A stretch of DNA of 64,000 nt from Thermoplasmatota archaeon (lineage in GTDB: Archaea; Thermoplasmatota; E2; JACPAO01; JAHFTW01), in NCBI GenBank assembly GCA_038046725.1, contig JBBSVQ010000040.1, forward strand, positions 9,526-73,525, in the 5' to 3' direction. Below are positions 1,113-62,960 of the stretch, one piece after another. The position numbers and the translations under genes were made by a program. The number at the start of each line of letters is the position of its first letter. Position 1 is the first letter of the stretch. The notes below the pieces were generated by a model. It did not search any database, was not told where the DNA came from, and saw nothing but the letters and a program-made list of their open reading frames with translations.

Positions 1113-2171
1113 ATGCCTTCCGACGAGAAGCAGAAGCACATGGTGTTCCCGCGCCACGTCCTGGTGGGCAACGGCGTCCTCGACCGCGTCGGCGAGACCA
1201 TTGCGGACCTCGAGCTCGAGACGAACGGCATCATCGTCGTGGACTCCAACACGCGCAAGCTCGTCGGCGACCGCGTGCAGGCCTCCCTGCGCCAAGCCGG
1301 CCTCGTCGGCCACTTCTACGAGTCCTCCGGCCCCACGATGACCTCCGTGCAAGCCGCCATCAAGGCCGGCCGCAAGGTCGGCGCGCACTGGTACATCGGC
1401 GCCGGCGGCGGCTCCGTCATCGACGTCGCCAAGCTCGCCGCTTTCGAGCACGGCCCGGCCTTCCTCTCGCTGCCCACCTCCGCCAGCCATGACGGCATCT
1501 GCTCGGGTCGCGCCAGCATCAAGGAGACGCGTGGCTCCGTGTCGATGGAGGCCAAGCCCCCGGCGGCCATCGTCGCCGACACGGAAATCATCTCCAAGGC
1601 CCCGTTCCGCATGCTGGCCGCGGGGTCGGCGGACGTCATCAGCAACCTAACGGCCGTCCTCGACTGGAAACTCGCGCACCGCCTCAAGGACGAGGAATAC
1701 TCCTCCTTCGCAGCCGTCCTGGCCAAGACCGCAGCCGACCAGATCCTCGAGAACAAGCAACTCATCCGTCCCGGCATCGAGGAGGCCGCCTGGCTCGTGG
1801 TCAAATCCCTCGTCGTGTCCGGAGTGTCCATGGCCGTCGCGGGCAACTCCCGCCCGGCCTCGGGTGCTGAGCACCTCTTCGGGCACGCCATCGACCGCCT
1901 CGCCCCCGGCCCCATGCACGGCGAGACCGTCGGCGTCGGCACCGTGCTCATGATGCACTTGCACGGCGGCGACTGGCAGATGATCCGCGACGCCCTGCGC
2001 GAGATTGGTGCCCCCACGACGGCGAAGGAGCTCGGCGTGCCGCCGAAGAAGATGATCGAGGCCCTCACGACGTGCCACAGCCTGCGCCCCGAGCGCTACA
2101 CCATCCTGGGCGAGTCGGGGCTGACGAAGGAAGCGGCGCAGAAATTGTGCAAGGCAACTGCCGTGCTCTGA
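1113..2171 (+). CDS. egsA: sn-glycerol-1-phosphate dehydrogenase
   Basis: ORF track 1101..2171. FPRHVLVGNGVL, GAGGGSVIDVAK and SHDGI motifs typical of archaeal G1P dehydrogenase. ATG 1113 preferred because a TTTAAG box lies 24 nt upstream. Confidence 0.9.
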   Translation: MPSDEKQKHMVFPRHVLVGNGVLDRVGETIADLELETNGIIVVDSNTRKLVGDRVQASLRQAGLVGHFYESSGPTMTSVQAAIKAGRKVGAHWYIGAGGGSVIDVAKLAAFEHGPAFLSLPTSASHDGICSGRASIKETRGSVSMEAKPPAAIVADTEIISKAPFRMLAAGSADVISNLTAVLDWKLAHRLKDEEYSSFAAVLAKTAADQILENKQLIRPGIEEAAWLVVKSLVVSGVSMAVAGNSRPASGAEHLFGHAIDRLAPGPMHGETVGVGTVLMMHLHGGDWQMIRDALREIGAPTTAKELGVPPKKMIEALTTCHSLRPERYTILGESGLTKEAAQKLCKATAVL

Positions 2172-2179
2172 CGCCCCAG

Positions 2180-2253
2180 CCACCGATTTGCACGGATTCT
2201 CACCGAACGACCCGTTCGGTGCAACTCGACACGTCAGCAGGTTCAGTGGATTG
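2180..2253. repeat. 9-nt-unit hairpin element, degenerate (CACCGA/CACGGAT units)
   Basis: CCACCGATT-TGCACGGAT-TCTCACCGA, with a perfect inner stem CACCGAACG/CGTTCGGTG and a diverged outer right arm ending TCAGTGGATTG. Confidence 0.5.
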
Positions 2254-2277
2254 CCTGAACGACGGCGTGGATTCAAC

Positions 2278-2475
2278 GGCGCGCGTTCCTCCTCGCACAA
2301 GTCCAACGCCCCTGACGGCGACGTCGGCGTGCTGCTGATGGAACCTCCCTCGAAGCGCGCGCCGAAGGCGCGCGAGGCGGCGCCCCGCGCCGCCTAGCCA
2401 ATCCACCATCGGCTTGTTGCCGTGGCCGTCGTCGTCACAAAGAGGTTGACTTGCGTGGGGCACCGAACGGGCGCC
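2278..2475 (+). mobile_element. MITE-like repeat core, copy A
   Basis: Starts GGCGCGCGTTCC and ends GAACGGGCGCC (imperfect terminal inverted repeat). The interior has GACGTCGGCG, GCGCGCCGAAGGCGCGC and GGCGGCGCCCCGCGCCGCC hairpins shared with the other copies. Confidence 0.65.
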
Positions 2476-2598
2476 GGCTGGGACTCGAAAGGCCAACGAG
2501 CGCTCGATTTCACCCAACCCTCCATTCAGTTTGCATCGAAACAAGGGGTGTTCAGGATTGTTGTCGTCCATCAACAACCTTCATATGGTTGTGCGCTA

Positions 2599-2934
2599 AT
2601 GTCACCTGTGCTATGGAAGGTCATCGAAGTCCAACTCCTGGAAGACCTGCAGGTCACGGCCGAGTTCCTGGTGGACGGCAGGGACGTGCAGGAACTCAAG
2701 GTGGTCCTGCACACGCAATCGGGCGGACCGGTCCAATGGTTGGTCCGGATCGAAACGCACGGCGGGAAACCCCACAAGCACGTCGCGTGGGACGACGAGG
2801 GGGAGCTCCGGCACAAGCAACTCAAGGGATGGCCAAGCGACTACTCCAAAGTGGTCACACGAGCCATCCAGGACCTCAAGATGAACCGAGAGATTTACCA
2901 AGCAAGGTACAAAGCATGGATGGCAAGCAAGTAG
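2599..2934 (+). CDS. Small hypothetical protein, first gene of a two-gene cassette (possible toxin-like partner)
   Basis: Internal ATG of ORF 2422..2934; the upstream part of that ORF is repeat sequence. 111 aa, contains GGKPHKHVAWDDEG. Its 3' end overlaps the next gene by 19 nt. Local GC is lower than the surroundings. Confidence 0.5.
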   Translation: MSPVLWKVIEVQLLEDLQVTAEFLVDGRDVQELKVVLHTQSGGPVQWLVRIETHGGKPHKHVAWDDEGELRHKQLKGWPSDYSKVVTRAIQDLKMNREIYQARYKAWMASK

Positions 2935-3263
2935 CCGACAGGGCACTCGACCTGGCCGAACAGCAAATGCTGGCCCTCCTGGCCAATCCGGCTGGAGCAC
3001 CCGACAGGCTCACCATCATCCCCATTCTGACGATGCTCGGAGGCCCGAACGGATTGACGCCGGCGCGCATCGCGCTGTTCATCGAAATCCGCAGCCACGG
3101 AATCTACGAACAGATTCAGGAGCTGGCGGACGCCATGGGTCGGGACAAGCACGCGGTCAGCAAGGACGTCGACGTCCTGGTGCATCACGGCCTCGTGCAC
3201 AAGCAGAAGAAAGGCCGAACTGTGACCATCGAAGCCGACAAGCGCCCCATCTTCCTCGCATGA
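2916..3263 (+). CDS. Winged-helix DNA-binding protein (possible antitoxin/regulator)
   Basis: In-frame ATG inside ORF 2451..3263. LTPARIALFIEIRSHGIYEQIQELADAMGRDKHAVSKDVDVLVHHGLV reads as helix-turn-helix plus wing, like small archaeal HTH proteins paired with toxin-like genes. Confidence 0.6.
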   Translation: MDGKQVADRALDLAEQQMLALLANPAGAPDRLTIIPILTMLGGPNGLTPARIALFIEIRSHGIYEQIQELADAMGRDKHAVSKDVDVLVHHGLVHKQKKGRTVTIEADKRPIFLA

Positions 3264-3438
3264 AGCGCTGCGGCCGGCGGGCGTGTAGGCGTTCCACCAG
3301 GAGTGGCCGAGAGCCCGCGCCGGGCCGGGTTCTCCCGGGGGCCGAGCGCAGCGAGCGCCCCCGCCGTCGCCCAACGTGCTCGTCCTTCGTTTGAAGGTCG
3401 CCCCACACGTTCTTGACCACCCATCCAGTCCCATCCCT

Positions 3439-4257
3439 GTGAGCGACGAGCGCCCATCCGTCGACCAGTACTTCATGGACATGACGCACCTCGTCAAGGC
3501 GCGCGGCACTTGCCCCCGCCGCCAGGTGGGCGCCGTCATCGTGAAGGACAAGCGCCTGCTCACCACGGGTTACAACGGCGCGCCGCGCAACTTCCCGCAC
3601 CCCATCGACGTCGGCTGCCTGCGTGACGAGCTGCAGGTCCCCAAGGGCATGCTCGCGGACATCTGCCCGTGCCTGCACGCCGAGCAGAACGCCATCCTGC
3701 AAGCCGCCACGACTGGCGTCTCCATCGAGGGCGCCGACCTGTACTGCACCACTCAGCCGTGCACGCAATGCAGCCGCATGCTGGCCAACTGCGGCATCCA
3801 ACGCGTCATCTTCGCGGAAGAGTACCCCGATCCGCTCGCCACCGGCATCCTCACCACGGCCGGCGTCGAGATGTACCATTGGGACCACGCCGCCAACAAG
3901 CTGCACCGCATCAAGGGCAACACCTTCGAGCAGGCGCAGGACCAATTGCGCAAGAAGTGGAAGGCCGGCGAATTCCACGCAGCCCCCGCGCCGGGAGCCG
4001 TCATCGGCAAGCGCCTGCCCGTGGTCCAGGGCGGCGGCGCGCAACCCTCCAACCGTCTGCGATCCGTGCCCCCGTCTGTGCCCGCGCCGCCTCCCCAGCC
4101 GGAGGAGCAATCCGGCGAGGAGGTGCCGGACGACGCATCGGGCCCGTCGGCGCGTGGCGTGCGCAACTTGCGCGACGACCCGAACCGGGCGGAACTCATC
4201 CGCCGCATGGCACAGGAGAAGGCCGAACGGCGCAAGAAGCAGCGCGAAGGCCTCTGA
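3439..4257 (+). CDS. dCMP (deoxycytidylate) deaminase with long C-terminal low-complexity extension
   Basis: ORF track 3376..4257. DQYFMDM...HAEQNA...PCTQC zinc-deaminase motifs. GTG 3439 is preferred because codons 3376-3400 are repeat sequence shared with 30968-30998. The last 130 aa or so are Pro/Ala/Arg/Lys-rich. Confidence 0.85.
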   Translation: MSDERPSVDQYFMDMTHLVKARGTCPRRQVGAVIVKDKRLLTTGYNGAPRNFPHPIDVGCLRDELQVPKGMLADICPCLHAEQNAILQAATTGVSIEGADLYCTTQPCTQCSRMLANCGIQRVIFAEEYPDPLATGILTTAGVEMYHWDHAANKLHRIKGNTFEQAQDQLRKKWKAGEFHAAPAPGAVIGKRLPVVQGGGAQPSNRLRSVPPSVPAPPPQPEEQSGEEVPDDASGPSARGVRNLRDDPNRAELIRRMAQEKAERRKKQREGL

Positions 4258-4273
4258 TCCAATCGACGCCCAG

Positions 4274-4359
4274 CCACGAGCCACGGATTGCACGGATGCG
4301 CACGGACCGTCGTTTCCGCGCCAATCCGTCGTTTCCGCGCCAATCCGTGCAATCCGTGG
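4274..4359. repeat. 9-nt-unit hairpin element, CACGGAT variant, with internal 19-nt tandem duplication
   Basis: CCACGGATT-GCACGGATG-CGCACGGAC ... CCAATCCGT-GCAATCCGTGG. The sequence CCGTCGTTTCCGCGCCAAT occurs twice in tandem (4307-4325, 4326-4344). Confidence 0.7.
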
Positions 4360-4440
4360 CAGGTCGGCGGCGTCGGCGTCGGAAGACGTTGCACCTTCGC
4401 GACCAGGAACCGGCGTGGCCGACGGTGGCCGGGAAGGCGA

Positions 4441-9159: not shown

Positions 9160-10221
9160 TTACAGCCACCCGCCGATGGTCGGCAAGTCGAGGAACGCGG
9201 AGTCGTAGAAGCGCTCGGCCTCGGCGGGCACGTCCGTCCATGGGATGCCCATGCGGTGCAGGATGTCCGCGCGCAGCGCTAGGTCCGCTGCAATGTCTCC
9301 GAGTTTGATGCCCGTGGCGTCCGCCACCGACACTTCGTACCCCGTGTCATCGACGAAGTAGTGGATGGCGCCCGCCAGGAGGTCCCGCGTCGCAAGGCGG
9401 ACCATGATGGCGTGCAGGCCCTCCTGCACCTCCGGTGGGAGCTTCGGCCAGGCAGGGAACTTGCCGAGCGCCTTGTGCGGCACCAGTCGGCCGTCCTCCG
9501 TCAACGTCTCCGCGACGACCTCGTCGCCCTGCATGCGGAACCCGAACCACGTGAGGTCCGCGGCGAGGTGGTAGGGGCGAACCATGGGGTCCTCGGCGGC
9601 CAGGGGCGCGAGCGCGAGTGCCCAGGCCTCCGAGGGCGAACCCGCTTCTTCGGCGGACCCCGTCGGCGTGGGCGGCCACGATGCCGGCTGGAACCAGCGT
9701 GCGCCGCGTTCGAGATTGGTCTTGATCTCGCGGTCGACGTCGCCCCACATCCCGGACTCGCGCGCGGCTTTCTCGAACATGCGGTTGACCGTGTCGGCGC
9801 GCTCCTGGCCCTTCTGGAGGCGGTACGCGGGCGCCACGCGGCTGACTTGGTCGTCGAATTCCCGTTGCAGGTTGCCTCCTGCGGCCACTTCGACGCCGCG
9901 GCAGCAACGGTTGACGTACACCTCGGTGCGGCGACCGAAGTAGACGTGGAAGGGGAAGTAGCGGCAATGGGCCGGCCGGTCCTCGTACGCCGTGCACCGC
10001 TTGTTCTTCAGGAGGGTGCAGGCGCCGCAGCCACCTTGCGGGGCGAGGAGAACCATCTCTCCGGTGCGCGTGATGGGCAACTGCGGGAACCGGGTCTTGA
10101 GCTTGGCCAATTCCGGCGCCGACGCCTCGGGAGTGAAGGTGCAGCAGAAGCCACAGCCCTCGATGCAGGCATAGCGCAGGCCGTGCAGTTCACGGCGGTC
10201 CATACTGGGCGCGGCAGGCAT
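9160..10221 (-). CDS. YkgJ-family cysteine-cluster (Zn/Fe-chelating CxxCxxCC) protein with C-terminal extension
   Basis: ORF 9160..10416 with internal ATG 10221. CIEGCGFCC...CGACTLL...CTAYEDRPAHCRYFP matches the YkgJ/UPF0153 pattern. The upstream part of the ORF is repeat sequence. Confidence 0.75.
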   Translation of the reverse strand: MPAAPSMDRRELHGLRYACIEGCGFCCTFTPEASAPELAKLKTRFPQLPITRTGEMVLLAPQGGCGACTLLKNKRCTAYEDRPAHCRYFPFHVYFGRRTEVYVNRCCRGVEVAAGGNLQREFDDQVSRVAPAYRLQKGQERADTVNRMFEKAARESGMWGDVDREIKTNLERGARWFQPASWPPTPTGSAEEAGSPSEAWALALAPLAAEDPMVRPYHLAADLTWFGFRMQGDEVVAETLTEDGRLVPHKALGKFPAWPKLPPEVQEGLHAIMVRLATRDLLAGAIHYFVDDTGYEVSVADATGIKLGDIAADLALRADILHRMGIPWTDVPAEAERFYDSAFLDLPTIGGWL

Positions 10222-10282
10222 GGCGGTCGGGATGGGCGCGTCAAGTCGCGGGGTGATGAACCTGCCGCGTCGGGCCGGCCGG

Positions 10283-10346
10283 GCCGCAGAGAAACGTAGA
10301 GCAATCGCGAACCGGTCTCGTCTGCGTCCTCTGCGTTCTCTGCGGC
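10283..10346. repeat. 9-nt-unit hairpin element, GCAGAG variant (left arm degenerate)
   Basis: GCCGCAGAG-AAACGTAGA-GCAATCGCG ... TCTCGTCTG-CGTCCTCTG-CGTTCTCTGCGGC. Confidence 0.55.
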
Positions 10347-10373
10347 TCGTCGAACCCCCTCGGTAGCTTGACC

Positions 10374-11593: not shown

Positions 11594-11641
11594 GCTCGGG
11601 AGAGGGGGAGGCGGTTCAAGGCCGTGGCGCTCGCCGCCCAA

Positions 11642-11797
11642 CAATCCGCCGATGACGCCGATGAACGATTCCCACATCGGCGGGTTCGGCGTCATCGCGG
11701 GTTCGTCGCTGCATGGCGAACCCATCCACCGATGACACCGATGCCCACCGATGAACGGTCACCGCATCGGTGCCATCGGTGGGAATCGGTGGATCGG
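11642..11797. repeat. Double hairpin composite (CGCCGATG hairpin + CACCGATG hairpin)
   Basis: Its reverse complement aligns by eye along its whole length with 62799-62960. Confidence 0.8.
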
Positions 11798-12900: not shown

Positions 12901-12959
12901 GAGGACCCGATGGTCGTCCCTCGGGCAAGAACGTTGCGCTTGCCGTGGGGCCGACCGGA

Positions 12960-13015
12960 CCACGACTTGCACGAAGGCCACGAACCAGGCTTCGTGCGGT
13001 TCGTGCAATTCGTGG
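12960..13015. repeat. 9-nt-unit hairpin element, CACGAA variant
   Basis: CCACGACTT-GCACGAAGG-CCACGAACC aggc TTCGTGCGG-TTCGTGCAA-TTCGTGG. Lies between divergent gene starts. Confidence 0.8.
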
Positions 13016-13074
13016 TTGGTGAAGGATGGCGCCCGTGCGAAAAAGGCCTTCACCGACGCCCCCCTGGCCATGGC

Positions 13075-16581: not shown

Positions 16582-16661
16582 GTCATCGGTGGGCATCGGT
16601 GACATCGGTGGATGGCCTTGCCAGGAGCGGGCCAATCCAGATGACACCGAGGTCACCGATG
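16582..16661. repeat. 9-nt-unit hairpin element, CACCGATG variant (GGATGG/CCAATCC next to loop)
   Basis: GTCATCGGTGG-GCATCGGTG-ACATCGGTGGATGG ... CCAATCCAGATG-ACACCGAGG-TCACCGATG. Confidence 0.8.
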
Positions 16662-27554: not shown

Positions 27555-27636
27555 CCTCGGTGCCCTCGGTGGGCATCGGTGGATGGTTCAGACTCTTCAC
27601 TCGCCCATCCACCGATGGCACCGATGCCCACCGATG
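27555..27636. repeat. 9-nt-unit hairpin element, CACCGATG variant
   Basis: CCTCGGTGC-CCTCGGTGG-GCATCGGTGGATGG ... CCATCCACCGATG-GCACCGATG-CCCACCGATG. Confidence 0.8.
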
Positions 27637-29856: not shown

Positions 29857-29937
29857 TCATCGGTGGGCATCGGTGACATCGGTGGATGGGCCTGGCATGG
29901 GTCTGACCATCCACCGATGACACCGATGTCACCGATG
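29857..29937. repeat. 9-nt-unit hairpin element, CACCGATG variant
   Basis: TCATCGGTGG-GCATCGGTG-ACATCGGTGGATGG ... CCATCCACCGATG-ACACCGATG-TCACCGATG. Confidence 0.85.
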
Positions 29938-35054: not shown

Positions 35055-35072
35055 GTGGGCGCCCGCAAACCA

Positions 35073-35154
35073 CATCGGTGACATCGGTGTCATCGGTGGA
35101 TGGTCTGGCGCGTTGGCGGGCCCATCCACCGATGCGCACCGATACCCACCGATG
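35073..35154. repeat. 9-nt-unit hairpin element, CACCGATG variant
   Basis: CATCGGTG-ACATCGGTG-TCATCGGTGGATGG ... CCATCCACCGATG-CGCACCGAT-ACCCACCGATG. Lies between the ABC-F stop and the moeB-like start. Confidence 0.85.
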
Positions 35155-35170
35155 ACGTTGTTCGGTCTGC

Positions 35171-36970
<1,800 letters not shown>

Positions 36971-37166
36971 GGGCAGGTTTGCCGACACGGGTCCCCTAGA
37001 TGGGCGTGCCGACGCGGGCCTGCGCCCAGCCGCAGGCCTCCGAGGAACCCGGGGAAACAGGGAAACCGAATTGGCCAGTTTCCTCGGGTTCCCCGCGTTT
37101 GCCCGGAGACTCGCCGGCACGCGGGCGGCGGGTTCAAGGGCTCGGAGCGCTGATGCTCTCCAAGCC

Positions 37167-37622: not shown

Positions 37623-37638
37623 CACCGGCACGAAACAA

Positions 37639-37717
37639 CATCGGCGTCGTCGGCGACATCGGCGGATGGTTGGCCCATTGGGTGACCAATCCGCCGATGG
37701 CGCCGAACGCGCCGATG
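37639..37717. repeat. 9-nt-unit hairpin element, CGCCGATG variant
   Basis: CATCGGCG-TCGTCGGCG-ACATCGGCGGATGG ... CCAATCCGCCGATG-GCGCCGAAC-GCGCCGATG. Confidence 0.8.
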
Positions 37718-37730
37718 TGGGTTCCTGGCG

Positions 37731-39422
37731 CTAGGGTTCCGGCGTGCCGAACTTGCCGGCCAGGCGGGAGCCCTTCGGCCAGCCACCGGACGTCGCCTGC
37801 ACCTCGAGGCCGGGCCGGATGGCGCCCGTCGGGCACGCATCGAAGCAGGCGCCGTCGGCGATGCACAAGTCGCGATCCACGCGGGCCATGTCGGTGACGA
37901 TGGCGGCGTCCGTGGGGCATGCGGCTTGGCAGCCGTTGCACACGATGCAGTCCGCGGCGAGCACCCAGGCCTTCTTCTCCTCCGGGAGGGTCTTGGCGAA
38001 GGCCTTCACTGCGGGAACGTCCTTCGGGTTGCCAGTGAACTTGCCACCGACAGCCTCGGGCGCGACAACCGCCGCGGGGCTCGACGCGGGCGTGGGCGGA
38101 GCCGGCGTGGCCGCGGGGGCCTTCGCCTGCTTGGGCGCCTCGTGCACGACGGGCGATGCCGCCTGCGGCACAGAGCCCACAGAGGACACCGAGTCAGACT
38201 TCTGCGCGCTCTGTGCCTTGGGGAGCGGGGTAGCCGCGGTCCCCGGCGGGGGCACGGCGGCCGGCTTGGTTCCCGACTTCACCGCGCGCTCGGCGGCGGC
38301 CTGACGGTCGGCGTCGAGGGTGTCCTTCGTGGGCACCATCCACTTGGCGGTGGCGAGCTTGCGTTTGTTGGCCTCCGCGATGAGGGCGTCCACGTGGCCC
38401 TTCCAGTCGCCGACGAGGCCGAGATCGGAGTACTGGAAGATGGCGGCGCTCGGGTCGGAGTTGATGGCGATGATGGTGCCCGACTCCTTCATGCCCTCGA
38501 TGTGCTGGATGGCGCCGGAGATGCCGACGGCGATGTACAGCTTGGGACGGACCGAGATGCCGGTCTGGCCGACTTGGCGGCCGCGCTCCATCCAGCCCTT
38601 GTCGGCGACGGGGCGCGAGCAGGCGACTTGGCCTCCCAGGGCCTGGGCGAGCTCCTCGAGCTTGGCGAAGCCTTCCGGGCCGCCGATGCCGACGCCGCCG
38701 GCGACGAGGACGTCGGCCTTCGTGATGTCGGCCTTGACGTCATCGACGACGTAGGAGATGACTTGGGCGGCGTACGTCTTGCCGTCGAGCCACTTCGTGT
38801 CGGCGTTGTGCACCTTGCCCGACCGCTTGGTGTCGGGGTGGAGGGGCTTGAAGATGCCGGGGCGCGCCGTGGCCATCTGGGGGCGGTGGCGGTCGCAGCG
38901 AATGGTGGCGAGCATTTTGCCGCCGAAGGCCGGGCGGCGGGCGAGGAGTTCGCCGTTGACGGCGTCGACGTCGAGTTCCGTGCAGTCGGCCGTCATGCCG
39001 GCGTCAAGGGTCGCGGCCACGCGGGACGAGATGTCGCGGCCGGTGTGCGTGGCGCCGATGAGGACGATGTTGGGCTTGTGTTGCTCGATGAGGGCGTTCA
39101 GGACGTCCGTCGAGGGGCGGGCCAGGGGGGTCTTCAGGACAGGGTGCTGCGCCAGGATGACTTCGTCGGCGCCCGCGTGCAGGCACTGGGCGGCGAGGTC
39201 GGTGACTTGGTGGCCAAGGATGACGGCGGTGACCTTGTGGTGCAGCTTCTCCGCCATGGGGCGCGCGGCGCCGAGCAGTTCGAGGGTGACCGGGCGCAGT
39301 TGGCCGTCGCGGTGCTCCACGATGACCCAGACGCCCTTCCAGTCCGCGAAGGAGTCGCAGGGTTTGCAGGCGCGGAACTGGATGGCGTCGTAGCGGCTCC
39401 CCTTGCGACGGGACCGATCCAC
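37731..39422 (-). CDS. etfA: Electron transfer flavoprotein alpha subunit fused to a C-terminal 2x[4Fe-4S] ferredoxin domain
   Basis: ORF 37731..39512. EtfA core (AVGISGAIQHIEGMKESGTIIAIN), then a 110-aa Ala/Pro-rich linker or so, then CIVCNGCQAACP...CIADGACFDACP. GTG 39422 chosen, start uncertain; upstream codons are hairpin repeat. Confidence 0.85.
   Translation of the reverse strand: MDRSRRKGSRYDAIQFRACKPCDSFADWKGVWVIVEHRDGQLRPVTLELLGAARPMAEKLHHKVTAVILGHQVTDLAAQCLHAGADEVILAQHPVLKTPLARPSTDVLNALIEQHKPNIVLIGATHTGRDISSRVAATLDAGMTADCTELDVDAVNGELLARRPAFGGKMLATIRCDRHRPQMATARPGIFKPLHPDTKRSGKVHNADTKWLDGKTYAAQVISYVVDDVKADITKADVLVAGGVGIGGPEGFAKLEELAQALGGQVACSRPVADKGWMERGRQVGQTGISVRPKLYIAVGISGAIQHIEGMKESGTIIAINSDPSAAIFQYSDLGLVGDWKGHVDALIAEANKRKLATAKWMVPTKDTLDADRQAAAERAVKSGTKPAAVPPPGTAATPLPKAQSAQKSDSVSSVGSVPQAASPVVHEAPKQAKAPAATPAPPTPASSPAAVVAPEAVGGKFTGNPKDVPAVKAFAKTLPEEKKAWVLAADCIVCNGCQAACPTDAAIVTDMARVDRDLCIADGACFDACPTGAIRPGLEVQATSGGWPKGSRLAGKFGTPEP
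38167..38217. repeat. 9-nt-unit hairpin element, GCAGAG/CACAGAG variant, inside the etfA linker coding region
   Basis: GGCACAGAG-CCCACAGAG-GACACCGAG tcag ACTTCTGCG-CGCTCTGTGCC. Translated on the minus strand as KAQSAQKSDSVSSVGSVPQ. Confidence 0.7.
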
Positions 39423-39490
39423 CGATGACACCGATGTCACCGATGCGGTTGCCGTGCCGGCCATCGGTGTCATCGGTGACATCGGTGGAT
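39416..39490. repeat. 9-nt-unit hairpin element, CACCGATG variant (ATCC ends distal)
   Basis: ATCCACCGATG-ACACCGATG-TCACCGATG cggttgccgtgccggc CATCGGTG-TCATCGGTG-ACATCGGTGGAT. Lies between etfB and etfA. Confidence 0.9.
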
Positions 39491-39508
39491 TCGTTTCGTG
39501 GGCGGGAG

Positions 39509-40414
39509 TCACTGGCCCACGCTCCCGCGTGTGAACAGTTCATTGACGAGTTCGCCGGCGTTACCGAGTTTCTTTGCGTGGCGCTCGAAACCGCTCGAGA
39601 TATCGACCTTGCCGACGATGGTGGGGCTGCCCTTGAGGCCGACCCAGGAAGGGTCCTTGATGTCGGTCAGGTCCGCGAGGCTCCAGACGACGAGTTGCGT
39701 CTGGGCGCCCTTGACTTTGCCGTTGAGGGTGGCGATGCGCGGCGTGTTGATCTTCAACTCGCACGTCAAGGCGACGGGCAGCGGGAGGCGGAGGGTCTCG
39801 TGGCCGCCGCCGATGGAACGGACCGCGGTCACGGTCTCGGACACCGGGTCGAACTCGGCGCTGTGGATGTAGGTCGCCTGCTCGGTGTCGAGTTGGCCTG
39901 CGACGCCGGGGCCGACTTGGCCCGTGGAGGCGTCCGTGGTCTCCTCGCCGAAGAGGATGATGTCGACGTCGCCCCAGGTCTTGCTGATCTTCTTGATGCC
40001 GGCCGAGAGCGTCATGCTCGTCGGCCAAGTGTCGGCGCCGGCAAAGGCACGGTCCGTGATGAGCACGCCGCGGTCGGCGCCGCGGGCGACGCATTCGCGC
40101 AGCATGATGTCGAAGAACGGGGGGCCCATGGTGACCACAGAGACCTGGGCGCCGAAGCGGTCCTTGAACTGCAAGGCCATCTCGAAGGCGTTCTCGTCGG
40201 GGGGGTTGATGATGTTCTTGACCTTGGTGCGGTCGAGCGTCTTCTTGACGGGATCGATGGTCAAGTCGGTGGCGTCCGGCGTCATCTTCATGCAGACGAC
40301 GACGTGCAGCGGGCGGCCGAGCGAAGGGATGTTGACGGGCTGCGAGACCCTGCGGCTGGCGGCCTGCGGGGTTCCCTTTTGGGCTCCGTTGCTCGACGGG
40401 GGGACCGAAGTCAT
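39509..40414 (-). CDS. etfB: Electron transfer flavoprotein beta subunit
   Basis: ORF track. VVVCMKMTPD...NPPDENAFEMAL...DIILFGEETTD, typical EtfB. N-terminal extension of about 35 aa. Confidence 0.9.
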   Translation of the reverse strand: MTSVPPSSNGAQKGTPQAASRRVSQPVNIPSLGRPLHVVVCMKMTPDATDLTIDPVKKTLDRTKVKNIINPPDENAFEMALQFKDRFGAQVSVVTMGPPFFDIMLRECVARGADRGVLITDRAFAGADTWPTSMTLSAGIKKISKTWGDVDIILFGEETTDASTGQVGPGVAGQLDTEQATYIHSAEFDPVSETVTAVRSIGGGHETLRLPLPVALTCELKINTPRIATLNGKVKGAQTQLVVWSLADLTDIKDPSWVGLKGSPTIVGKVDISSGFERHAKKLGNAGELVNELFTRGSVGQ

Positions 40415-43678: not shown

Positions 43679-43713
43679 CCCGGTTCCGCGGGCACCTGAC
43701 GACTCCCGAACCG

Positions 43714-43786
43714 GGATTGCGGTGATGACGGTGACGCCGGCCCTGGCTCGGCGCACCCCATCACTGGGCATCACCGGAATCACTGG
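43714..43786. repeat. 9-nt-unit hairpin element, GGTGAT/ATCACY variant
   Basis: GGATTGCGGTGATG-ACGGTGACG ... CCATCACTG-GGCATCACC-GGAATCACTGG. About 18 of 24 positions are complementary by eye. Confidence 0.6.
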
Positions 43787-43808
43787 TTGGGTGGTCGAGG
43801 GCGGGAGC

Positions 43809-44120
43809 CTACCATTTCCCTTGGTACTTGAGCCAAGCCGCCACCAGGAGGATGGCGGCGACGAAGACCGTGAGGGCATTGAGGATGATGACCGTCTCCA
43901 GCAAGCCCGCCACGAGAAGCATCAGGCCGAGGGCCGCGATGCCCAGGCCAAGCACGCGGTTTCCGCGCGGGCGAGCCACGGCCAGCACCAAGCCGACGAA
44001 GAGAAGGCCGATGGCGACCGCCGTGTCAATCCAAGGCACAGGCAACAGACCGGCGAAGACGGCGACGCCAAGGACGAGGAGAAGCCGCGCAACGGTGCCT
44101 TCAGAGAGCTCCTGCGTCAA
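43809..44120 (-). CDS. Small membrane protein
   Basis: ORF track. Three or four hydrophobic helices. Confidence 0.55.
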   Translation of the reverse strand: MTQELSEGTVARLLLVLGVAVFAGLLPVPWIDTAVAIGLLFVGLVLAVARPRGNRVLGLGIAALGLMLLVAGLLETVIILNALTVFVAAILLVAAWLKYQGKW

Positions 44121-44131
44121 GCGTCAGCGCC

Positions 44132-44440
44132 CTACATCTTTCCGACGAGCTTCAGGACGCCGACGACGATGAGGATGATGGCGACGATGGTGATGAGCAT
44201 GTTCGCAATGCCGTCGAGGAAGTTCAATCCGAGACTCGCGAGGATCGCGATCGCGCCGAGCACGATGAGTGTCCACGCCAACCAGGAGGCGCCGGAGACC
44301 TTGCCCGTCAGGATCAGAATCCCCACCACGAGCAGCAAGACGCCCAGGATCAACGTCAAGTACGGGATGTTGAGCCAGCCCAGCAGGAGAAGGGCGCCGA
44401 CGACGATGAGGACGATTCCGAGGATCTTGTTGTTTTCCAC
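44132..44440 (-). CDS. Small membrane protein
   Basis: ORF track. Four hydrophobic helices, GTG start. TTTAAT box 24 nt upstream. Confidence 0.55.
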   Translation of the reverse strand: MENNKILGIVLIVVGALLLLGWLNIPYLTLILGVLLLVVGILILTGKVSGASWLAWTLIVLGAIAILASLGLNFLDGIANMLITIVAIILIVVGVLKLVGKM

Positions 44441-44463
44441 GGCCTTGACAATTGCCGGGCCCC

Positions 44464-44469
44464 ATTAAA
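44464..44469 (-). promoter_or_regulatory. TTTAAT TATA-like box upstream of the small membrane protein gene
   Basis: 24 nt upstream of GTG 44440. Confidence 0.3.
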
Positions 44470-50636: not shown

Positions 50637-51731
50637 ATGGCCGACAAGCCGCTTTCGATCCTGGAGTCCAAGAAGAAGTCCGACCTCGAGTTGGACCTCA
50701 GCGACGCCGACCTGCGCCACCTGTACACGACGATGGTGCGCGTGCGCCGCATGGACGAGAAGCTCATCCTGCTGCAGCGCCAGGGCCGCATCGGCTTCTA
50801 CCTCTCCTGCCTCGGGCAAGAGGCCTGCCACATCGGCGCCGCCTACGCCCTCAACGAGGACGACTGGATCTACCCCCACTACCGCAACCCCGGCACCCCG
50901 CTCCTTCGCGGCGTCTCCATGTTGCGCATGGTGAACCAGTGCTTCGGCAACGCCGCCGACGAAATCAAGGGCCGCCAGATGCCCGTGCACTACTCGTTCA
51001 AGGACATCAATTTCTTCAGCATCAGCTCCCCGCTGGGCACGCAGATCATCCAGGCCGCCGGCACGGCGTACGCCATGAAGCTGAAGGGCACGAAGCAGGT
51101 CGCCATGACCTCCTTCGGCGACGGCTCGTCCTCGGAGATTGACTTCCATTCCGGCATGAATTTCGCGGCGGTCACGAAGTCGCCCACCATCTTCATGCTC
51201 GAGAACAACCAGTGGGCCATCTCGGTCCCCACGAGCAAGCAGAGCGCGTCGGAGTCGTACGCCATCAAGGCAGCCGCGTACGGCATGCCCGGCATCCAGG
51301 TGGACGGCAACGACATCCTCGCCGTCTACAAGGTCACGAAGGACGCCGTGGAACGCGCCCGCAACGGCGAGGGCCCGACGCTCATCGAGCTCGTCACCTT
51401 CCGCATGGGCGCCCACTCGACGTCGGACGACCCGAGCCGCTACTGCCCGCCCGAGCAACTGAAGGAGTGGGCCGCGAAGGACCCGCTCAAGCGCTTCGAG
51501 GCGTACCTGCTCAAGACGAAGGTCATCGACGCCAAACTCATCGAGAAGACGAGCGCCGACGCCGTCGCCGAAGTGGACGCCGCCATCAAGGCCGCGGAGA
51601 AGAACGGCCCGATGCCGCCCGTCGAGACGATGTTCGACGACGTCTACGAGCACCTGCCTGACCTGCTCAAGGACCAGAAGGAGCAGATGCTGCGCGACTA
51701 CAAGGAACACGGAATCCCAGGGGCGCACTGA
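50637..51731 (+). CDS. 2-oxoacid dehydrogenase E1 component alpha subunit
   Basis: ORF 50568..51731 with internal ATG 50637. ThDP motif GDGSSSE...ENNQWAISVP. Confidence 0.92.
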   Translation: MADKPLSILESKKKSDLELDLSDADLRHLYTTMVRVRRMDEKLILLQRQGRIGFYLSCLGQEACHIGAAYALNEDDWIYPHYRNPGTPLLRGVSMLRMVNQCFGNAADEIKGRQMPVHYSFKDINFFSISSPLGTQIIQAAGTAYAMKLKGTKQVAMTSFGDGSSSEIDFHSGMNFAAVTKSPTIFMLENNQWAISVPTSKQSASESYAIKAAAYGMPGIQVDGNDILAVYKVTKDAVERARNGEGPTLIELVTFRMGAHSTSDDPSRYCPPEQLKEWAAKDPLKRFEAYLLKTKVIDAKLIEKTSADAVAEVDAAIKAAEKNGPMPPVETMFDDVYEHLPDLLKDQKEQMLRDYKEHGIPGAH

Positions 51732-51928
51732 TGCTGACCACCAACGAATGGGTGCGCGTCTTGATCTGCATCTTCGGCCCGCCGATGGTCCTTGGACTTG
51801 TGCACGTGACGACGAATTTCTTCCAAGTCATGACGCTCGCCGAGGTCATTCTCTTGGGCCTCGTCGCCGGAATTGCAGGCTCTTTTGGCATTTGGAGCAA
51901 GCGCAAATCGCGCGAGGAAGTGGCCTGA
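51731..51928 (+). CDS. Small 2-TM membrane protein (65 aa)
   Basis: ORF track. TGATG overlap with the E1alpha stop. GAGGAA Shine-Dalgarno-like sequence near its own 3' end, ahead of the next ORF. Confidence 0.55.
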   Translation: MLTTNEWVRVLICIFGPPMVLGLVHVTTNFFQVMTLAEVILLGLVAGIAGSFGIWSKRKSREEVA

Positions 51929-52015
51929 ATGGCCGGCTCCACCATCCTCTACCTCCTCCTCACAGGCGCCGGCTGCTGTGTAGCCGGGGCCTGCTTCGTC
52001 CTCGGAGGCAACTGA
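51929..52015 (+). CDS. Micro-ORF, 28 aa hydrophobic Cys-rich peptide (MAGSTILYLLLTGAGCCVAGACFVLGGN)
   Basis: Own translation; too short for the ORF track. The ATG abuts the preceding TGA (TGAATG). GGAGG lies 8 nt before the next ATG. Confidence 0.4.
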   Translation: MAGSTILYLLLTGAGCCVAGACFVLGGN

Positions 52016-52016
52016 G

Positions 52017-52274
52017 ATGCCAGCAACCCTTGAGGAAAACGCCTTGCTCGCCTACGTGAAGGACCGCAAGCAGACGACGGCCAGCCGCGACGCGCGGCTC
52101 CGGACTTACGGGTCCACCGCCATGGAATCTTTGGGAATTGCGATGCTGATTGCGGGCTTCGCGATCGGCCTGTCTGCGACCTTCTTCAGCCCCCTTGTCG
52201 CCATGGCCCTGTTGGCAGCTGCGTGCACGGCAGTCATCCTCATCATCCGGTCCAACAAGAAGGAGGCCGCCTGA
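52017..52274 (+). CDS. Small 2-TM membrane protein (85 aa)
   Basis: ORF track. Starts 1 nt after the micro-ORF stop. AGGAGG in its last codons, ahead of the next ATG. Confidence 0.55.
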   Translation: MPATLEENALLAYVKDRKQTTASRDARLRTYGSTAMESLGIAMLIAGFAIGLSATFFSPLVAMALLAAACTAVILIIRSNKKEAA

Positions 52275-52469
52275 ATGGACACGGAGGTCACTTGGCGGAC
52301 CATTTGGCAGGCCGTGACGTTCATCCTGGTCACCCTCGCCATCGCCTCCCTCGTCGGCAGCATCTTCCCGTTCGGCCAGGTCTTCGTGTTCCTGTTCGCC
52401 GGCTTGATCGCCTACCTCAACGCGCGCTTCTCTCCCTTCACCACGCCGCAGCAGGAGGTCGCCAACTAA
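52275..52469 (+). CDS. Small 2-TM membrane protein (64 aa)
   Basis: ORF track. The ATG abuts the preceding TGA. AGGAGG in its last codons. TAATG overlap with the E1beta start. Confidence 0.55.
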   Translation: MDTEVTWRTIWQAVTFILVTLAIASLVGSIFPFGQVFVFLFAGLIAYLNARFSPFTTPQQEVAN

Positions 52470-53476: not shown

Positions 53477-53546
53477 GAACCACGAAACCCACGAAGCGCA
53501 CGAACGAGAGCGCAGCGCTTCGTGCGTTTCGTGCAATTCGTGGTTC
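53477..53546. repeat. 9-nt-unit hairpin element, CACGAA variant
   Basis: GAACCACGAAA-CCCACGAAG-CGCACGAAC ... CTTCGTGCG-TTTCGTGCA-ATTCGTGGTTC. Lies between E1beta and E2. Confidence 0.85.
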
Positions 53547-53563
53547 TAGCGGAGGCGCCTGAC

Positions 53564-55000
53564 ATGACATTCCAATTCAAGCTGCCCGACATCGGCGAAG
53601 GAATCCAAGAGGGCGAAATCGTCCGCTGGATCAAGAACGAGGGCGACGCCGTCAAGGAAGACGAGCCCATCGTCGAAGTCATGACGGACAAGGCCACCGT
53701 CGAGTTGACCAGCCCGCGCAAGGGCGTCATCAAGAAGTGCCACTTCGCCGAGGGCGACATGGCGAAGGTCGGCCAAGTCATCGTCGAGATCGAGGAAGGC
53801 GCGACTGCCAATCCGACGGAGCCACAGAGCGCGCAGAGTCCGCAGACAACGTCTTCTGCGACCTCTGCGGGCTCTGCGGCCCCGGCGAAGTCCGCCGCCA
53901 AGGACGCCAAGGCCGAGTCCAAACCCGAGGCCAAGAAGGAGGAAAAGGAGGAAAAGACCCTCTTCGAGCTCCCCAAGGAGATGGCCGCAGCGACGAAGGT
54001 CATCAACCGGCGCGGAGCCGCCCCGTCGGCCCCGGCCCAGCCCTCCGCGCCCACCAAGCCGGCTGTGCCATCCGGCTACAAGGCCACGGCCGCGCCCGCC
54101 GTGCGCCGCTACGCCCGCGAGAAGGGCATCGACCTCAACCAGGTCCTCGGCACCGGCCAAAATGGCCGCGTGACCCGGGAAGACCTCGACGCGTTCCAGT
54201 CGGGCGGCGCCCGCGCGCCGCAGGACGCCCCCGCCCCGATGGCCGTCGGCGGTGCCCGCTTTGGGTACACCGACGTCAAGTACAGCACGAACCCGGCCCT
54301 CGAGGAGCGCGTGCCGCTGCGCGGCCTGCGCCGCACCATCTCGAAGGCGATGGAGCGCTCGAAGTTCACGGCGACGCACTTCACGTACGTCGCGGAAGTG
54401 GACTGCGACAACCTCGTTCGCCTGCGCGACTCCGCCAAGAAGGTCGCCGATGAGCGCGGCGTGAAGCTCACCTTCATGCCGTTCTTCGTCAAGGCCGCCG
54501 TCGCGGCGCTCAAGCGCCACCCGGACGTCAACGTCGCCTTCGACGAGAACACCTCCGAGATTGTCAAGAAGAAGTACTGGCACATCGGCGTCGCCACGGC
54601 CACGGACGCGGGCCTCATCGTTCCCGTCGTGAAGGACGCGGACCGCAAGGGCGTCCTCGACATCGCCCGCGAAGTGGCGGACCTGTCGGAGCGAACCAAG
54701 GCCGGCAAGGCCAAGCTCGAGGAGCTCACCGGCTCGACGTTCAGCATCACGAGCCTCGGCAAGCTCGGTGGTGTCCTGGCCACGCCCATCCTGAACTACC
54801 CCGAGGTCGCCATCATGGGCGTCCACGAGATGAAGCAGGTCCCCGTCGTCAAGGAGGGCCAACTTGCCATCGGTTGGCGCATGAACCTGAGCTTCACCTT
54901 CGACCACCGCATCGTCGACGGCTACAACGGCGCCATGTTCGCCAACACCCTCGTCTCCTACCTCGAGGACCCCCAGCTCCTCCTGCTGGAGAGTCTCTGA
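53564..55000 (+). CDS. Dihydrolipoamide acyltransferase E2
   Basis: ORF 53522..55000 with internal ATG 53564, GGAGG 9 nt upstream. Lipoyl domain ([11 protein letters not shown]), PSBD ([14 protein letters not shown]), catalytic DHRIVDG. Confidence 0.93.
53808..53880. repeat. 9-nt-unit hairpin element, GCAGAG variant, inside the E2 linker coding region
   Basis: CCAATCC...GCCACAGAG-CGCGCAGAG-TCCGCAGAC aacg TCTTCTGCG-ACCTCTGCG-GGCTCTGCGGC. Translated as [20 protein letters not shown]. Confidence 0.8.
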
Positions 55001-60580: not shown

Positions 60581-60646
60581 GAACCACGAATTGCACGAAG
60601 GCCACGAACCGCGACGGTTTCGTGCATTTCGTGCCATTCGTGGTTC
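60581..60646. repeat. 9-nt-unit hairpin element, CACGAA variant
   Basis: GAACCACGAAT-TGCACGAAG-GCCACGAAC cgcgacgg TTTCGTGCA-TTTCGTGCC-ATTCGTGGTTC. Lies between argJ and argB. Confidence 0.9.
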
Positions 60647-61489: not shown

Positions 61490-61503
61490 TGCACGCCCGC
61501 CCA

Positions 61504-61562
61504 GCCGCGAATTTCGCGAAGGACCGCGAAGCCCTGTTCGCGCTTTTCGCGCAATTCGCGGC
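61504..61562. repeat. 9-nt-unit hairpin element, CGCGAA variant
   Basis: GCCGCGAAT-TTCGCGAAG-GACCGCGAAG ccctg TTCGCGCTT-TTCGCGCAA-TTCGCGGC. Lies between argB and argD. Confidence 0.85.
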
Positions 61563-61583
61563 TTCGTCGTCGGGGGTCGCCGC

Positions 61584-62798: not shown

Positions 62799-62960
62799 CA
62801 ATCCACCGATGCCCACCGATGGCACCGATGCGGTTCCCCATCGGTGGAAATCGGTGTCATCCGTGGATGGGTCCGTCGTGCCGCGACAATCCGCCGATGA
62901 CGCCGAACCCGCCGATGCAGGAATCGTTCATCGGCGATATCGGCGTCATCGGCGGATTGG
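62799..62960. repeat. Double hairpin composite (CACCGATG hairpin + CGCCGATG hairpin)
   Basis: CAATCCACCGATG-CCCACCGATG-GCACCGATG ... GGATGG, then CAATCCGCCGATG-ACGCCGAAC-CCGCCGATG ... CATCGGCGGATTGG. It is the inverted counterpart of 11642-11797. Confidence 0.85.

Follow-up and report, generated by a model that had tools for sequence, protein, structure and literature searches.

How did closely similar segments come to lie, in the same frame, in two unrelated proteins of one archaeon? The question is raised by a 64-kb stretch of DNA (the window, to which all window counts below refer), in which the linker of an EtfA-ferredoxin fusion protein carries a short segment, element A, resembling a segment in the linker of the E2 dihydrolipoamide acyltransferase, element B. 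The analysis indicates, with a probability of roughly 80%, that A is a worn copy of an interspersed hairpin repeat turned into linker peptide and B its sister copy in E2, both representing selfish or recombining DNA. The host is an uncultured, free-living, high-GC Thermoplasmatota archaeon (GC content of the window 64-72%). The features concerned were as follows.

38169-38216, minus strand: element A, 48 nucleotides (nt), 16 codons, in-frame relic of a hairpin repeat, peptide AQSAQKSDSVSSVGSV
37731-39440, minus strand: EtfA-ferredoxin fusion gene (P0121, annotated with 563 aa); Pfam domains ETF 31-207, ETF_alpha 232-312 and 4Fe-4S dicluster at about 485-536
53822-53878, plus strand: element B, 57 nt, 19 codons, in-frame copy with the core variant shared with A
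53564-55000, plus strand: E2 dihydrolipoamide acyltransferase gene (P0001); Pfam domains lipoyl 4-76, E3-binding 176-208 and catalytic 247-475

The limits of A and B were refined by comparison with orthologues. According to the Pfam domain limits, A corresponds to residues 403-418 of P0121 in the interdomain linker between ETF_alpha and the 4Fe-4S dicluster domain, and B to residues 87-105 of P0001 in the first linker, which leads from the lipoyl to the E3-binding domain. The EtfA-ferredoxin and E2 proteins of the window are 100% identical to P0121 and P0001, respectively, of a metagenome-assembled genome (MAG) labelled 'Candidatus Thermoplasmatota archaeon'.

Likeness of the two linker segments

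The minus strand of positions 38167-38217 reads GGCACAGAGCGCGCAGAAGTCTGACTCGGTGTCCTCTGTGGGCTCTGTGCC and is translated as PKAQSAQKSDSVSSVGSVPQ within the open reading frame (ORF) 37731-39512 of the same strand; the plus strand of 53821-53880 reads GCCACAGAGCGCGCAGAGTCCGCAGACAACGTCTTCTGCGACCTCTGCGGGCTCTGCGGC, a 20-residue peptide within the E2 ORF. Each of the two elements is a hairpin by itself, with arms of 9-nt periodicity, a feature absent from the earlier note on this DNA. In the 9-nt register, B reads CACAGAG-CG CGCAGAG-TC CGCAGAC, a 6-nt loop and TTCTGCG-AC CTCTGCG-GG CTCTGCG, with the left arm (53823-53847) of the form (CRCAGAS NN)x3, the loop at 53848-53853 and the right arm (53854-53878) of the form (YTCTGCG NN)x3. 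The right arm of A (38169-38193) has three units, CTCGGTG-TC-CTCTGTG-GG-CTCTGTG, and its left arm (38200-38215) two, CACAGAG-CG-CGCAGAA, the third unit being lost. Folded as RNA, A reached -33.3 kcal/mol (z = -5.3 relative to shuffles) and B -43.1 kcal/mol (z = -7.0).

The likeness of A and B was evident at the nucleotide level. The 15-mer CACAGAGCGCGCAGA occurs at exactly two sites in the 64 kb, 38201-38215 (minus strand) and 53823-53837 (plus strand), and exact matches of CCTCTGYGGGCTCTGYG were found in the window solely at 38169-38185 (minus strand) and 53862-53878 (plus strand). When up to three mismatches were allowed, the latter motif had nine sites versus 1.7 expected, a number reached in none of 100 shuffles. 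The local alignment of A with B scored 32, compared with a mean of 12.0 (standard deviation 2.8) for 60-nt tiles of the window on both strands, and this score was not reached by any of 5000 codon shuffles; once A itself and its own palindrome were set aside, the top match of A among the tiles was the E2 segment. The left arms are identical at 15 of 15 positions including the CG spacer, the GG spacer is common to the right arms, and the similarity ends at the limits of the elements, their flanks being unrelated. Both copies are read in one phase, with a codon starting at column 3 of the covariance model described below, CAG of the left arm being read as Gln and TCT-GYG of the right arm as Ser-Ala/Val. 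The earlier note had described a resemblance of A to the E2 insert in nucleotides, peptide and frame. The exact 15-mer, the right-arm motif and the shared codon phase bear this out, the alignment demonstrates a similarity beyond composition, and the sequence and translation quoted for A were confirmed on re-reading the ORF.

Serine codons provided further evidence on the direction of causation. TCT accounts for 17 of the 870 Ser codons (2%) elsewhere in the window genes, and for three of six in A and four of six in B (P ~1e-4 and P < 5e-6, respectively). Such TCT-rich Ser codons indicate that the peptide was set by the CTCTG core of the repeat and not vice versa, and the use of a rare codon rules out convergent selection of a low-complexity peptide. 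As judged by sequence comparison, a common origin of A and B at the nucleotide level was demonstrated.

The hairpin repeat family in the window and in related loci

Tandem Repeats Finder revealed about 30 period-9 arrays in the window, pairing as hairpins. A strict detector, demanding 9-nt periodicity and 27-nt arms complementary at 20 or more positions, found nine hairpins in the window, compared with zero in 10 Markov-shuffled versions of it. Because a relaxed detector catches period-3 coding noise (eight weak matches in 470 kb of distant bacterial E2 loci, L033-L103, used as a negative control), the census was made with a covariance model. This model, R1, was built from an alignment (A3), gap-free in the arms, of 20 intergenic elements taken both from the window and from related loci; A and B were excluded, and the searches were run with filters off and with roughly calibrated E-values. 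R1 detected 14 loci in the window at E < 0.01, and about five further, inside-out elements are poorly seen by it; the family comprises about 19 hairpins in 64 kb, two of them coding (A and B) and the other 17 intergenic. Element B was recovered at 53820-53881 with 57 bits (E ~5e-12) and element A at 38166-38218 with 24.8 bits (E ~6e-4). The statement of the earlier note that two unrelated proteins share a repeat-derived linker segment is upheld by this recovery with a model built without either copy and by the location of both in linkers. An Rfam scan of the window at the gathering threshold matched no family.

An arm of the repeat consists of tandem 9-nt units, each with a 7-nt core of the type C-R-C-N-G-A-W (CRCAGAG/CTCTGYG in A and B) and about two spacer bases. 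The cores vary among elements (CACCGATG or CGCCGATG, CACGAA, CGCGAA, CACGGAT, CGCAGAG) and are uniform over the six units of one element. In A3, the core columns pair in 90-100% of sequences and the spacer columns 20-21 in 25-35%; since the cores are paired and the spacers mostly unpaired, the structure corresponds to three short helices with small internal loops between them. Two-sided changes were observed in 26 of 29 pairs, and the covariation score was 0.525 versus 0.197 for shuffles (reached by 0 of 500), with 0.07-0.15 for slid partners. Readings of the core as a K-turn, box C/D or origin box were dropped on inspection, the cores being fully complementary.

The family also occurs with the other arm order, the inside-out form (CATCGGTG N)x3-GGATGG-loop-CCATCC-(N CACCGATG)x3. 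Within the CACCGATG class, the ATCC...GGAT ends are outside at 39417-39490 and 62889-62957, and they face the loop (GGATGG-loop-CCATCC) at 16584-16660, 27557-27634, 29863-29933, 35066-35160 and 37638-37718. It looks as if a single arm of 27-31 nt is the unit and pairs in either order, as with REP (repetitive extragenic palindromic) singlets and REPINs. The left arms of the members at 12958-13017 and 60582-60645 match, with the spacers counted, at 26 of 27 positions. The members other than A and B are listed below without strand.

10282-10347: third copy with the CGCAGAG/CTCTGCG core, intergenic, spacers unlike those of A and B; R1 25.7 bits
39417-39490: member in the etfB-etfA spacer, core CACCGATG/CATCGGTG; R1 64 bits
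37638-37718: member just 3' of the EtfA stop, inside-out, (CATCGGCG N)x3-GGATGG-loop-(N CGCCGATG)x3
53478-53545: member in the E1-beta/E2 spacer, core CACGAA/TTCGTG; R1 58.7 bits
60582-60645: member in the argJ-argB spacer, core CACGAA; found by R1
12958-13017: member 5' of the true start of a DUF255/thioredoxin gene, core CACGAA; found by R1
62889-62957: member with core CGCCGATG; found by R1; another, truncated copy at 62801-62868
61503-61563: member in the argB-argD spacer, core CGCGAA/TTCGCG; found by R1
4279-4361: member with a long loop, core CACGGAT/ATCCGTG; found by R1
11640-11703 and 11724-11794: two adjoining members, core CRCCGATG; found by R1
29863-29933: inside-out member, core CATCGGTG; similar ones at 16584-16660, 27557-27634 and 35066-35160
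37038-37108: weak or divergent member in the SET-ABC gap, GGGGAAC type; R1 18.5 bits, E ~0.02; the orthologous gap of locus L112 is without it
43709-43788: decayed intergenic member; R1 25.7 bits

Nearly all intergenic gaps above about 80 nt in length contained a hairpin of 3 x 9 nt. The orientation of the neighbouring genes made no difference, and gaps inside operons were filled too (etfB-etfA, E1beta-E2 and argJ-argB-argD). The elements at 12960 and 27557 were considered as coding copies and rejected, both being located upstream of true gene starts according to the profile of GC content at third codon positions (GC3).

Among related loci, R1 found 35 distinct elements in 488 kb. The relatives at a greater distance (L009-L014 and L016-L029) yielded no elements, which confines the family to a subclade. 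The close EtfA loci all come from Thermoplasmatota MAGs, a few of which bear the label Halobacteriales or 'bacterium'.

The EtfA linker of the closest orthologue, P0122 of L112 (83%), reads ...TPAK/PQPAAAA... and contains no hairpin, compared with ...PLPK-AQSAQKSDSVSSVGSV-PQAAS... in the window, and the difference fits a clean 48-nt insertion (AAG/CCGCAG). Other EtfA-ferredoxin linkers are occupied: L005 has an intact element with the core CACGGAA/TTCCGTG (peptide TTEITERTEKAKLPSVASVGSVV), and L113 an intact CRCAGAA element (peptide PQKAQNAQKPASAVSAGSVV) in the same phase as A and B, the closely related core variant CRCAGAA being present also in its etfB-etfA spacer. In L006 (11172-11302), two tandem copies with CGCAGA cores encode AAQPQIAQKPAEQASAKSAPAAP and then AAQPQIGQKPAETVSAKSAPSAVPS; here the in-frame element was duplicated or inserted twice.

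In E2, the protein of L106 (85% identical) has an empty site, TE/AP, and that of L107 (82%) a decayed orthologous copy of B with the same loop, ACAACGTC, whose fold is no better than that of shuffles (z = -1.25). Elements occupy the same place in the E2 linkers of L104, L105, L108, L109, L110 and L111, and their cores are CCCGAG, CGCCGAG, CGCAGAT/CGCCGA (a mosaic, in L108), CGCCGAT and CGCCGA. Of 96 E2 orthologues examined, many contain peptides of the element type (QPQI... and ...SAKSAKSA...) and others do not. At the end of the window's E2 linker, positions 53936-53956 hold a perfect 9-nt tandem repeat (AAGGAGGAA in 2.3 copies, read as KEEKEEK), which forms no hairpin and is unrelated to the hairpin family.

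An in-frame member was also identified in L007 (2809-2885, within the minus-strand ORF 2167-3588). Its core is AACAGATG and it is read as ...TDG QQMKQNKQIAGSPSASSAASVPSV DKF... in a seryl-tRNA-synthetase (SerRS)-like protein, apparently a third unrelated host protein.

Orthologous intergenic sites differ in their cores: the etfB-etfA spacer has CACCGATG in the window versus CGCAGA in L112, and the etfA-SET spacer CATCGGCG versus CNGGAAT. The L112 element in the etfB-etfA spacer (10020-10081) has CGCAGA three times on the left and TCAGCG three times on the right, the same uncompensated change standing in all three units, a sign that the tandem units were homogenised or that the arm was born by triplication. 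The mosaic element of the L108 E2 linker (2253-2317, protein P0025) has CGCAGAT, CGCAGAG and CGCCGAG on the left and TCTGCG, ATCGGC and ATCTCCG on the right. The pairing of the partners is out of register, which hints at conversion involving two core types.

As for the remaining content of the window, the 54 proteins scanned were all housekeeping ones (the arg cluster, 2-oxoacid dehydrogenase, ETF, ETF-QO, ABCE1 and others). In the 2-oxoacid dehydrogenase cluster, the E1-alpha and E1-beta genes are separated by one to three small ORFs (59-95 aa, with no Pfam match recorded) in the window (51731-52469), L105 (3838-4017) and L111 (8518-9005). A plus-strand gene predicted by a GC3-based caller at 43791-44468 is doubtful, as its pattern of GC content by codon position shifts midway.

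Reading phase, origin of the copies and competing explanations

In 11 of the 12 coding copies, which represent three proteins, a codon starts at model column 3 and the match length is 2 mod 3. Counted as about eight independent events, at least seven fall in one phase (P ~0.003-0.008). Due to the 9-nt period, the phase is constant along one arm, and in the favoured phase the arms read Pro/Ala-Gln-x and Ser-Ala/Val-x, giving a peptide rich in Pro, Gln, Ser and Ala. Read in either of the other two frames, A and B yield a stop or else peptide rich in His/Arg or in Cys/Leu. The best interpretation of the common frame is a survivorship filter, and not a property of insertion. Survival in coding DNA would require jointly a length that is a multiple of three, a stop-free frame and a benign peptide, the benign frame being the one in which the arms give Pro, Gln, Ser, Ala, Thr, Gly and Val, residues that a flexible linker may tolerate.

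The course of events proposed here begins with a short, non-coding repeat, similar to REP elements or to MITEs (miniature transposable elements with inverted repeats), with three tandem 9-nt units per arm. One copy would have landed in, or recombined into, the DNA coding for the disordered EtfA-ferredoxin linker and then decayed, and a sister copy with the same core variant, B, would likewise have entered the lipoyl-arm linker of E2. The copies probably arrived by insertion from elsewhere, and candidate routes are transposition in trans, hairpin-mediated template switching and ectopic gene conversion between family members. Signs of copying are found in the nearly identical left arms at 12958 and 60582 (26/27) and in the spacers common to A and B. 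The differing cores at orthologous sites, the triple change in L112 and the L108 mosaic suggest frequent turnover and/or conversion among units and copies. The peptide would now serve merely as linker, with the hairpin as an unmaintained leftover, and the present effect of the copies may be near-neutral; the lost fold of the L107 copy and the unit gone from A are signs against a maintained structure. The earlier note had argued for a mobile or recombining element rather than convergence, and this is supported by the nucleotide-level likeness, the family membership, the TCT codons and the orthologues without the segments, among them the closest EtfA orthologue.

Several observations weigh against this explanation. 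No transposase, integrase or RAYT-like gene was found among the 54 window proteins scanned, and no clear target-site duplication was seen at A (AAG/CCGCAG) or B (GA(A)G/CCCCGG), where any direct repeat would be of at most 1-2 nt. Close relatives have different cores both in the E2 linker and at orthologous sites between genes, which requires either repeated insertion at the same spots or conversion in place. Overall, the EtfA linkers of the window and L112 have about the same length (110 versus 113 aa), a scattered alignment is the one favoured by MAFFT, and there is no unique empty site; insertion and replacement are therefore not separable for A. Finally, A still folds strongly, so some role of the hairpin is possible.

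A broader account, advanced tentatively, takes the 3 x 9-nt hairpins as an undescribed class of archaeal repeat which forms a recurrent, lineage-wide source of linkers (in E2, EtfA-ferredoxin and possibly SerRS) and would spread and homogenise through the hairpin itself, in a manner outside the REP/RAYT or MITE/insertion sequence models. The unit would equal three codons, the six cores of an element would change together, and orthologous sites would differ in core and not in architecture, by way of single-arm insertion, template switching or gene conversion.

It is unlikely that the hairpin is functional in mRNA, acting in ribosome pausing for the folding of the upstream domain or in processing or termination that uncouples EtfA from ferredoxin, and was recruited to linkers repeatedly. 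Such a role could explain why A and B fold far better than shuffles and why two particular linkers bear elements again and again across many lineages, with varied cores and one architecture. However, the closest orthologues, in L106 and L112, manage without the element, the orthologous copy of L107 is without the fold, A lacks one unit, and the same elements fill intergenic gaps of all gene orientations, so that tolerance by linkers is the simpler explanation.

Direct copying of the linker between E2 and EtfA by ectopic recombination, in place of separate arrivals from the intergenic pool, is very improbable. It would account for the fact that A and B resemble each other more, also in their spacers, than either resembles the third copy with this core at 10282-10347. 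Yet the similarity ends at the element limits, and L113, with CRCAGAA in both the linker and the etfB-etfA spacer, indicates that intergenic sources of that type exist; this comparison was judged on 64 kb of the genome. That Ser/Ala/Gln-rich linkers became alike by chance in a high-GC genome is scarcely credible, for although both segments lie in Pro/Ala/Ser-rich, composition-biased linkers, they share an exact 15-mer unique to two sites, an alignment score beyond 5000 codon shuffles, the rare TCT codon, a palindrome with 9-nt periodicity and detection by a model derived from intergenic DNA.

Significance and comparison with known repeats

The copies in linkers suggest a survival rule for a repeat entering coding DNA (linker position, a length divisible by three and one benign phase) and offer a concrete source for the fast turnover in length and sequence of the Ala/Pro/Ser-rich linkers of multidomain enzymes. 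The family also provides a tractable case for studying the spread of short hairpin repeats and the ways in which each remains uniform within itself, given its co-varying cores, unpaired spacers, two arm orders and differing cores at orthologous sites. There is, moreover, an impact on annotation. A hairpin at a gene junction has one open frame, along which ORF callers prolong the downstream gene, so that the hairpin is rendered as a false N-terminal extension. Likely examples are the 593-aa ORF of EtfA versus the annotated 563 aa (39441-39512), E2 begun at GTG 53522 and not at ATG 53564 (53522-53563), and P0122 (L112 10001-10090), called as 591 aa and overlapping etfB.

Literature searches covering the repeats of Thermoplasmatota, repeats of 9 nt (nonamers) and linker palindromes yielded no description of these elements. 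Several known systems are nevertheless comparable. REP/REPIN elements are mobilised by RAYT transposases (PMC3733652). The present repeats are similarly short, GC-rich hairpins, dense in intergenic gaps including those of operons, and occur in both arm orders. Unlike REPs, they have the ends AACC/ATCC/GCC...GGTT/GGAT/GGC and no GTAG/CGTC tetranucleotide tag of the kind that marks one end of a 20-40 nt REP palindrome, as read by eye from the alignment and not by a formal scan, and each arm is a tandem triplet of 9-mers and not a small palindrome. REP systems have a RAYT (Y1 transposase) gene with the repeats on its flanks, whereas none was seen in the 64 kb examined here; REPs are rarely reported in frame, whereas A and B are in frame.

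Bacterial MITEs that fuse with ORFs include Correia, BOX, ERIC, Nezha and the Coxiella QMITE (PMC10969869, PMC3184786, PMC5896051). The likeness lies in the non-autonomous nature, the long stem-loops, the filled and empty sites among relatives and the occasional in-frame fusion. The present elements differ in being much shorter and in having no layout of terminal inverted repeats around an internal core, no target-site duplication seen and no known parent insertion sequence. Palindromic amphipathic repeat coding elements (PARCELs) are likewise translated DNA with dyad symmetry, but those are 25-residue amphipathic domains in long tandem arrays of surface proteins, a family of protein domains and not an interspersed intergenic repeat. 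An archaeal precedent comes from Methanocaldococcus jannaschii, for which Suyama, Lathe and Bork reportedly described, in 2000, palindromic repetitive elements that have coding potential and are open to read-through within genes. Those repeats are from another phylum and have another sequence and architecture, as far as their reported details go.

The closest parallel is provided by the Rickettsia palindromic elements (RPEs), palindromic repeats lying in frame in unrelated Rickettsia genes (Ogata et al. 2000, 2002, summarised in PMC10969869 and PMC3184786). The features in common with A and B are a multi-copy palindrome, intergenic and also in frame in unrelated housekeeping genes, translated, missing from orthologues and placed where the fold tolerates it. 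The RPEs are about 105-146 bp long, with a conserved peptide per family, in an obligate intracellular bacterium (PMC10969869, PMC3184786). The present elements, in contrast, measure 48-80 nt, have 3 x 9-nt arms and many co-varying cores, belong to a free-living, high-GC archaeon, and their coding copies have so far been found almost solely in interdomain linkers; the likeness is one of kind, and a relationship in sequence is not expected. The event at the EtfA-ferredoxin and E2 linkers is an RPE-type phenomenon in an archaeon, and the wider repeat family is of more interest than this single finding.

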